The position numbers were made by a program, and so were the translations under genes. DNA of 10,974 nt from a virus. The notes below the pieces were generated by a model that was given only the letters and a program-made list of their open reading frames with translations, was not told the origin of the DNA and made no database searches. Positions 4,030 to 4,918 of this stretch are shown in pieces; position 1 is the stretch's first letter; every line of letters starts with the position of its first letter. The stretch is taken from the UHGV virus genome UHGV-1688096. One strand, given 5' to 3'.

Positions 4030-4918
4030 CGTGTTCACCCTCACGAACTTTCAGGTAGGTATTATCGTTAAGCAGGAAATCAAATCCCTTTTTGTGCCAG
4101 ACGGTTCCGCGCTGATGGTTTGGGCGCTCTTCGAACATCCATCGGCAATTTTCGCCTACGTAGCTCAAATAATTTCTCCAGTCCTGCATCGTGAACCCAT
4201 GCCCGTCGAGCTGGCGGGTTATCACTCCGGCTTTGCGCCAGAACGTTCGGATCTGGTTTTTACGCTTGTCATTCAGTGCGCGGATTTTTGGCGCTTCAGG
4301 AAGGATTTCGTGGTAAGCATCGACAACATCCTGACAGCTAACGGAAGGTTTTTTCTTGTCAGACTTTTTGTCTGCTGCGGTACTCTCTAATACGTCAGTA
4401 TTAGAGATAATATTATTATATTCTTTATCTGTGGTAATTTGCTGGTAATCTGCTGGTACAGTATTGCTTGCAGGCATTGGTATTGCTGGCTTTGAGGTGG
4501 TAATTTGCTGGTAATCTGCTGGTACAAAATTTGACTGATAATCGTCATATTTCTCTACCGAGAAAACTGAGAATTTACCGTGTGAAACCCAGTCAATCAT
4601 GCCGAGTTTTTTGAACTTTCTAAGCAGGTACTGAACGCGATCTGGTTTGAGTCCTGTTTCAAACGCCAGAGAGTTTCTACCGCCAAGTAGCTTCCCTCTG
4701 CCTACCAGAATTTCTCCTGCGTCAGTCATTACATACTCAGGCGTATGCTTTGCTTTGAGGATTAAGTGAACCCACAGATGCGCAGCTTCTGCGTCCTTGT
4801 AAAACGGCACATCCATAATTTTACGGTGCAGCAAGGCATACCCCTTACCGCTGCTTTGATGCGGTTGTTGTAGCCTTCTGGCCTCTCTGGCTTCGGCTAG
4901 ATTAGATATGTTACTCAT
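4019..4918 (-). CDS. Replication initiation protein, lambda O-like (P22 gene 18-like)
   Basis: 299 aa ORF directly upstream of and overlapping the helicase gene; contains the iteron array expected of a lambdoid origin. Product carries a short internal repeat ([10 protein letters not shown] twice) encoded by the DNA repeats. Confidence 0.85.
4381..4527. repeat. Putative replication origin: iteron array plus adjacent AT-rich tract inside the O-like gene
   Basis: Exact 30 bp direct repeat gtggtaatttgctggtaatctgctggtaca at 4431-4460 and 4498-4527, with further TGCTGG(T/C)A-type copies between; AT-rich stretch 4381-4430 lies on the side downstream in the sense of O translation, as in lambda ori. 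Confidence 0.6.

Follow-up and report, generated by a model that had tools for sequence, protein, structure and literature searches.

The window, that is, the whole stretch of 10,974 bp of viral DNA analyzed here, is the early region of a lambdoid prophage. Its rightward early operon, carried on the minus strand, comprises in order cro (5480-5725), cII (5092-5457), the 48-aa orf48/DUF2740 gene (4911-5057), an O-like replication initiator gene of 299 aa (4019-4918), a gene for a phage DnaB-family replicative helicase (2593-4029; 478 aa from the ATG at 4029), and the nin genes. On the plus strand lie cI (5815-6522), N (7294-7566), and the genes for Erf and Abc2. The helicase matches TIGR03600 (phage_DnaB; E = 2e-174, 580 bits against a cut-off of 499) as well as the Pfam families DnaB and DnaB_C, and its gene follows O directly, with the ATG at 4029 overlapping the O stop by 11 nt. 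It is the presumed partner of the O C-terminal domain. Scans for other signals returned no DnaA box (up to 1 mismatch) within 2240-5400, no internal promoter-like site within 4000-5200, and no Rfam match over the whole window.

The initiator gene was recognized from its translation and from a full-length match to PHROG 345 ("replication initiation O-like"; E = 4.7e-88, with aa 2-299 aligned to positions 1-292 of the 297-position profile). At the nucleotide level it is 99.8% identical to the O genes of Stx2 phage 86 and CP-1639 (over 900/900 nt), 99.4-99.6% identical to those of VT2-Sakai (likewise over 900/900 nt), an Stx1 phage, and mEp235, and, again over 900/900 nt, 98.8% and 98.4% identical to those of HK620 and HK022, respectively. 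Other searches with the protein were negative. For example, Pfam PF04492 (Phage_rep_O) gave no match even at E<=10, the Rep_3 Pfam family gave none, Pfam and NCBIfam together yielded only sub-threshold DUF7376 and Phage_rep_org_N at E = 0.17, and a sequence search of the PDB found no relative. BLASTP against lambda O (E = 4.7) revealed no similarity, and hhalign assigned a probability of 0.1% to a match between lambda O and the family profile built without a chimeric protein from Erwinia phage 59. A profile match to lambda O at 97% over the C-terminal domain was rejected as an artefact, because that chimera, which has a lambda-like C-terminus, had been included in the profile.

An AlphaFold2 model, built with 50 diverse homologues, divides the initiator into three parts. 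A predicted winged-helix domain occupies approximately aa 25-127 (pLDDT 83-95 for aa 31-120) and contains a helix-turn-helix (helices 81-88 and 92-104) and a beta-hairpin wing; a linker at aa 130-191, which corresponds to the origin-encoded part of the protein, is predicted to be disordered (pLDDT <35); and a helical C-terminal domain at aa 192-299 is modeled with confidence. A Foldseek search of the PDB matched generic winged-helix regulators only (ArsR/SmtB, CRP, CodY, and TubR, all at E>=0.009), which supports a DNA-binding fold for the modeled domain and favors no specific family.

Within the linker-coding part of this gene lies a repeat array. The 30-mer GTGGTAATTTGCTGGTAATCTGCTGGTACA occurs in two exact copies, at 4431-4460 and 4497-4526, with a period of 66 bp, or 22 codons. 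This pair is the only exact repeat of at least 14 nt in the window; the longest exact repeat in 50 shuffled versions of the window reached only 11-15 nt, so the pair is not a product of chance. Each 30-mer is composed of 11-bp units that read TACCAGCA(G/A)AT on the coding (minus) strand, and Tandem Repeats Finder (TRF) likewise reports an inner period of 11 bp. Exact TACCAGCA octamers number four in the 10,974 bp, and all four lie inside the array. The promoter-proximal cluster 1 (exact 30-mer at 4497-4526, minus strand) contains units at 4514-4524, 4503-4513, and 4492-4502, reading TACCAGCAGAT, TACCAGCAAAT, and TACCACCTCAA on the coding strand, and cluster 2 (exact 30-mer at 4431-4460, minus strand) contains units at 4448-4458, 4437-4447, and 4426-4436, reading TACCAGCAGAT, TACCAGCAAAT, and TACCACAGATA. 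The third unit of each cluster begins TACCAC on the coding strand. The units are direct, tandem, and non-palindromic, and the nine 11-bp slots that run from the first unit through the last share a single register. The spacer between the 30-mers (4461-4496, minus strand) is fixed in length and sets the clusters 66 bp (6 x 11) apart. It contains one in-phase degenerate unit, AGCCAGCA, at 4484-4491, and two further two-mismatch matches, both off the 11-bp register.

On the promoter-distal side of the array, GC content falls to 0.25 over 4380-4439. Two elements are found here: an AT-rich tract of 23 bp with 2 G/C (9% GC) at 4408-4430, the presumed DNA-unwinding element, and, bordering it at 4384-4407, a perfect 10-4-10 palindrome, TCTCTAATAC-(4 nt)-GTATTAGAGA, whose DNA hairpin has a predicted energy of -7.5 kcal/mol (z approximately -5.5) on either strand. 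A prior sequence-only reading of this locus had described two exact 30-bp copies, degenerate copies between them, an AT-rich tract at 4381-4430, and a duplicated peptide in the initiator. Both copies are real, the second lying one base to the left of the 4498-4527 given there, and the duplicated 10-residue peptide is indeed encoded, at aa 132-141 and 154-163, so that the repeats encode aa 132-163 of the linker predicted to be disordered. The low GC content also holds, with the segment now resolved into tract and inverted repeat. The degenerate copies fare less well: one is in phase and two are off register, and they were rejected as functional units because the spacer sequence is unconserved in relatives.

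For years, GenBank records of phages of this type have carried an origin prediction at these repeats. In the VT2-Sakai record (AP000422.1), misc_binding features named "ori iteron 1" and "ori iteron 2", with O protein as the bound moiety, map exactly to window positions 4497-4526 and 4431-4460, and the HK620 record (AF335538) places a two-piece rep_origin on the same bases, within window 4431-4526. At the homologous repeats, the Sf6 record carries a rep_origin described as a "repeat region reminiscent of the phage lambda origin", and the phage L record one described as a "putative origin of replication". The phage L paper reports six imprecise 11-bp repeats, TGTCCAACGGA (PMC8022706). As cited in that paper, Hilliker 1981 found the phage L replication region to be exchangeable with that of P22 only as a whole (PMC8022706). 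A literature search on HK022, HK620, VT2-Sa, and gp18/gp12 retrieved only sequence-based statements, with no binding or footprinting, ori cloning, or origin mapping found, and Kozlowska et al. (2020), in biochemical work on the origins of Stx phages, tested only lambda-type O proteins, namely those of lambda, 933W, and P27 (PMC7466680). As far as could be found, the GenBank origin annotations of VT2-Sakai and HK620 are sequence-based predictions. Since near-identical public sequences are already annotated in this way, the feature is not new: the origin is known and belongs to a textbook class of element. The existing VT2-Sakai and HK620 annotations cover the two repeats only, without the AT-rich tract or the palindrome. 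What is added here is modest and introduces no new kind of element; it consists of comparative support, covariation of the palindrome, candidate specificity residues, and alleles with one to four clusters.

The comparison covered 95 homologous genes, drawn from 12 annotated phages, 3 bacterial genome contigs, and 80 IMG/VR contigs and extending down to 43% amino acid identity. Absence of the repeats from homologous initiator genes had been named in the sequence-only reading as evidence against it; they were found at the same gene position in 95/95 such genes, so this comparison did not refute the reading. The common layout consists of three-unit clusters of 11-bp units starting at gene nt ~385-400, with a second cluster usually 66 bp further on. 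Clusters are separated by a multiple of 11 bp in 93/94 multi-cluster genes; the single exception has two distances that add up to 66. Every homologue has an AT-rich tract of 16-25 bp after its last unit, and all 95 genes contain an inverted repeat with a 4-nt loop; the order of tract followed by inverted repeat was checked in the homologues displayed. The origin segment is also matched in 372/5426 complete E. coli genomes, and in 229 of these the match extends over at least 80% of the segment.

Across these genes the units fall into five sequence classes with a common CCA core: TACCAGC (55 loci), GTCCAAC (23 loci), GTCCAGC (11 loci), TGCCAAC (5 loci), and TACCAAC (1 locus). Class and N-terminal winged-helix domain of the encoded protein co-vary, which supports, from comparative data, the proposal of the sequence-only reading that the iterons determine replication specificity. 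In the predicted recognition helix, aa 96-97 are QY or HY with TA-CCA, KS with GT-CCA, and KY with TG-CCA, and aa 90, in the turn before this helix, is L with CCAGC and I with CCAAC. Residues 90 and 96-97 thus appear to track iteron class, a correlation that is suggestive only, because the five classes are not phylogenetically independent. A single alignment column separating all classes was also sought and rejected: position 37 was the only one returned, and none alone splits TA, GT, and TG, which aa 96-97 do jointly.

The inverted repeat varies in a distinctive manner. Among the 95 genes it exists in 17 distinct versions, in which the stem pairs have changed on both sides at 9/10 positions. 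The 170 pair cells contain 41 two-sided changes, no G-U/G-T pair, and no one-sided change; 98.2% of the cells are Watson-Crick, a value matched in 0/500 shuffles, and controls slid along the sequence pair at 31-54%. Such exclusively two-sided change without G-U/G-T pairs indicates that Watson-Crick symmetry is strictly kept on both strands, as in a palindrome maintained at the DNA level. In addition, Erwinia phage 59 has a palindrome nearly identical to that of the window despite its lambda-type C-terminus and loader. The palindrome therefore seems to be under selection for symmetry or structure rather than for recognition by one partner, and we infer that it plays a role in the origin. An RNA-level explanation would instead make 4384-4407 a weak intrinsic terminator of antisense (plus-strand) transcripts or an mRNA hairpin. 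A consensus scan does rate the segment as terminator-like on the plus strand, with a weak score, the hairpin being followed by TAATATTATT, and software has placed a predicted terminator at this spot in the phage L record. However, only 3 G-C pairs occur in the stem and a clean T-run is missing, an unrelated palindrome occupies the same place in lambda, and the pattern of change just described is that of a DNA palindrome; the RNA explanation is thus considered unlikely.

Comparison with related phages reveals modular inheritance. Relative to the window, Sf6 shows 45% amino acid identity in the O N-terminal part, 99% in the C-terminal part, and 99% in the helicase, and its iterons differ from those of the window; the corresponding values for phage L are 57%, 95%, and 99%. 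A mosaic junction lies at gene nt ~490-500, corresponding to window ~4420-4430, just past cluster 2. The identity of Sf6 to the window is at most 64% ahead of this junction and at least 90% beyond it, and another homologue (L055) displays the reverse pattern. The O C-terminal domain is therefore co-inherited with the helicase, separately from the N-terminal domain and the iterons. The O-like gene of Erwinia phage 59 joins the N-terminal domain and 11-bp-unit array of this family to a C-terminal part sharing 70% identity with lambda O aa 178-299, with a lambda-P-like loader gene downstream. This natural chimera shows that the N-terminal domain and array are able to replace the origin-recognition module of lambda. 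The pattern is that known for lambda O, in which the N-terminus is paired with the origin and the C-terminus with the helicase partner.

Taken together, these comparisons make it very probable that the array serves as the origin of replication for a lambdoid prophage of the HK022/HK620/VT2-Sakai type and lies within the segment of the initiator gene that encodes the linker. The origin function assigned by the sequence-only reading agrees with the annotation of the same 30-mers in VT2-Sakai and HK620 and of homologous repeats in Sf6 and phage L. A competing explanation is that the repeats are O-binding sites serving autoregulation, a transcriptional roadblock, copy control ("handcuffing"), or exclusion, with initiation taking place elsewhere. 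Class covariation and DNA-level constraint demonstrate a protein-DNA recognition element and not initiation as such, and in lambda, plasmid-borne ITN3-4 together with oop transcription was needed for a replication-inhibition phenotype against rep-lambda phages (PMC3349717). Nevertheless, an AT-rich tract and a palindrome invariably come after the repeats, as they do at ori-lambda, and the repeats are located exactly where the lambda ori sits; the Erwinia chimera joins the N-terminal/array module to a lambda O C-terminus and a P-like loader; and the window contains no second repeat array and no exact TACCAGCA outside this one. A purely regulatory role is consequently regarded as quite improbable.

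The possibility that selection acts on the peptide rather than on the DNA was also weighed. According to this explanation, a duplicated 22-residue module tunes linker length and the DNA repeat is a by-product. The duplication is in frame, and the existence of alleles of 277, 299, 321, and 343 aa indicates that the linker tolerates whole-module changes. Since 11 is not a multiple of 3, however, the unit is read in three frames, VPA, YQQ, and ITT (gTA-CCA-GCA, TAC-CAG-CAa, and atT-ACC-ACc), and the 11-bp periodicity exists only in the DNA and not in the peptide. The same conclusion emerges from a codon test on ten distinct TACCAGC-class genes, in which codons with an invariant amino acid were scored for nucleotide invariance. 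In the iteron clusters 16/17 such codons are nucleotide-invariant, and in the AT-rich tract and palindrome 7/7, compared with 50/140 in the rest of the gene (Fisher p = 3e-6 for the clusters, and p = 1e-8 with the tract and palindrome added). Synonymous positions in the units are thus frozen. In cluster 2, 30/33 nt are invariant in the ten genes, and 10/10 amino acid-invariant codons are also nucleotide-invariant. The 33-bp spacer keeps its length, with only 7/33 nt (21%) invariant in the ten same-class genes, and the 12-residue spacer-encoded part of the module is unconserved (0/11 amino acid-invariant codons). The iteron units, tract, and palindrome are therefore constrained at the DNA level. 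With the repeat-encoded segment predicted to be disordered as well, a protein-level origin of the repeat is very unlikely.

The different allele lengths correspond to different numbers of clusters. Besides the two-cluster form, which is by far the commonest, natural alleles with one, three, and four clusters occur; the 321-aa form is represented by at least 26 protein clusters, and the 343-aa form is also present. The DNA of three such loci consists of two or three perfect 66-bp modules plus a final 30-mer, and IMG/VR contains both a three-cluster allele and a one-cluster allele of 277 aa. In the latter case, either one cluster suffices or the prophage is replication-defective. Lineage-specific spacer variants are identical across all modules of an allele, so the expansions are recent and recurrent, as expected of unequal exchange between 30-bp exact repeats. 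The complete identity of the two 30-mer copies and the repeated re-duplication of the 66-bp module might be taken as signs of a recent, functionless tandem duplication, yet a layout conserved down to 43% amino acid identity, across five unit sequences and diverged spacers, leaves that explanation with a negligible probability, and the comparative data refute it for practical purposes.

For the array as a replication origin, a working mechanism can be outlined from the precedents of lambda and the iteron plasmids (PMC5043065), with its steps borrowed by analogy because the initiator has no sequence similarity to lambda O. Several O protomers would use the recognition helix (aa 92-104) to contact the phased units, all from the same side of the double helix, and would distort the DNA. 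This distortion, together with pR transcription and supercoiling, would open the AT-rich tract, and the palindrome may extrude as hairpins that stabilize or delimit the bubble. The O C-terminal domain would then recruit the phage DnaB-type helicase without a lambda-P-type loader. Origin specificity would be set by the iteron class and the N-terminal domain, and the natural variation in 66-bp modules, from one to four clusters, would result from in-frame unequal exchange. A more elaborate and rather speculative scheme, doubtful when taken as a whole and different from what has been described for lambda, combines these elements: a monomeric winged-helix O would polymerize head-to-tail on the phased 11-bp units, as on iteron plasmids, with aa 90, 96, and 97 as a simple recognition code of two to three residues that sets specificity; a loader-independent phage DnaB would enter at a cruciform or hairpin on the distal border of the unwinding element, where palindromy is kept by compensatory change without conserved sequence; and the one to four clusters would tune origin strength in prophages, including Stx phages.

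Many Shiga-toxin prophages (VT2-Sakai/Sp5 type) amplify their genomes by means of the HK022/VT2-Sakai-type module, which hence determines stx gene dosage once they are induced. Knowledge of the origin and of what sets its specificity is useful in replicon typing, in forecasting whether co-resident prophages will cross-replicate or be incompatible, and in the construction of phage-derived vectors.

Among known systems, the iteron theta plasmids (P1, F, R6K, RK2, and pSC101) share helically phased direct repeats beside an AT-rich tract. They differ in that their units measure ~17-22 bp, compared with 11 bp in the window, which in addition has no nearby DnaA box and no Rep_3-type match and carries its origin inside the initiator coding sequence. 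The lambda-type arrangement recognized by the sequence-only reading holds for location and order: as at ori-lambda, a 299-aa initiator gene contains the origin in a similar position, where the two protein domains adjoin, and iterons, AT-rich tract, and inverted repeat with a 4-nt loop follow one another, the lambda inverted repeat lying just past the AT-rich tract and being unrelated in sequence to the palindrome of the window. It does not extend to the iterons themselves. The window has 11-bp direct units in two clusters, whereas the O dimers of lambda bind four imperfect palindromes of 18-19 bp (PMC5043065), and with direct, non-palindromic units the binding stoichiometry may differ from that of lambda O dimers. 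The initiator of the window also lacks detectable sequence similarity to lambda O. Lambda P is a loader that captures host DnaB, whereas the window encodes a DnaB-type helicase and no lambda-P-type loader.

Closer likeness is found in the P22-like phages L/ST64T (gene 18) and Sf6 (gene 43), whose initiators belong to the same protein family (64-67% overall amino acid identity), with a near-identical C-terminal domain, a 99% identical helicase, 3+3 units of 11 bp, a tract, and a palindrome. Their unit is TGTCCAACGG, compared with TACCAGCAGAT in the window, and their N-terminal domain is 45-58% identical; their origin specificity is accordingly predicted from sequence to differ from that of the window. 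The closest counterparts are VT2-Sakai, HK620, and HK022, with O genes 98.4-99.8% identical at the nucleotide level, the same gene order, and a DnaB-type helicase downstream, and nothing of substance separates the annotated origins of VT2-Sakai and HK620 from that of the window.

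Among the loci with homologous O genes, several O alleles differ from that of the window in the number of iteron clusters they carry, with four clusters in L013 (3001-4032; 343 aa), three in L014 and L015 (3001-3966; 321 aa) and in L051 (1201-2163; 321 aa), and a single cluster in L054 (1201-2031; 277 aa). In each case, the difference from the window consists of whole 66-bp modules that are perfectly identical, a pattern implying that the origin expands and contracts in frame, and recurrently. A natural chimeric O-like gene was also identified in Erwinia phage vB_EhrS_59 (L010 1577-2527), in which the N-terminal domain and the array of 11-bp units are those of the window O family, while the C-terminus shows 70% identity to residues 178-299 of lambda O. 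The gene that follows it encodes a lambda-P-like loader in place of the DnaB-type helicase.

By homology, the helicase starts at ATG 4029 (478 aa in relatives) and overlaps the end of O by 11 nt; the mechanical ORF list gives the GTG at 4044 as its start. Two ORFs inside O, 4031-4390 on the plus strand and 4387-4548 on the minus strand, are probably spurious; the counterpart of the former is listed as a hypothetical protein in an Stx1 phage record.

Near cII, the conserved lambdoid pO/oop 'sequence 5' (5055-5082, minus strand) and a strong terminator-like hairpin followed by a T-run (5094-5126, plus strand) together suggest a putative OOP-like antisense RNA directed against the 3' end of cII (5055-5135), a region without a match in Rfam. 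Palindromic operator-like sites of the form ATAAC-N4-GTTAT are found between cro and cI (OR; three sites, 5741-5803) and upstream of N (OL; two sites, 7058-7096). The window holds six matches in all, against 0.31 expected, and five of them fall in these operator regions. Between cI and N, a 98-aa ORF without a Pfam match (6563-6859) contains a 21-bp tandem repeat (two copies, 77% match, 6712-6754).

Adjoining the AT-rich tract is a 10-4-10 palindrome (4384-4407), whose perfect pairing is maintained by compensatory changes at the homologous sites in L001-L096. Across its 17 versions there, changes on both sides occur at nine of the ten pairs, and G-T at none. In the public records of Sakai, HK620, Sf6 and phage L, the features annotated as ori do not include this palindrome. 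Lambda also carries a palindrome at the equivalent position, but one unrelated to that of the window.
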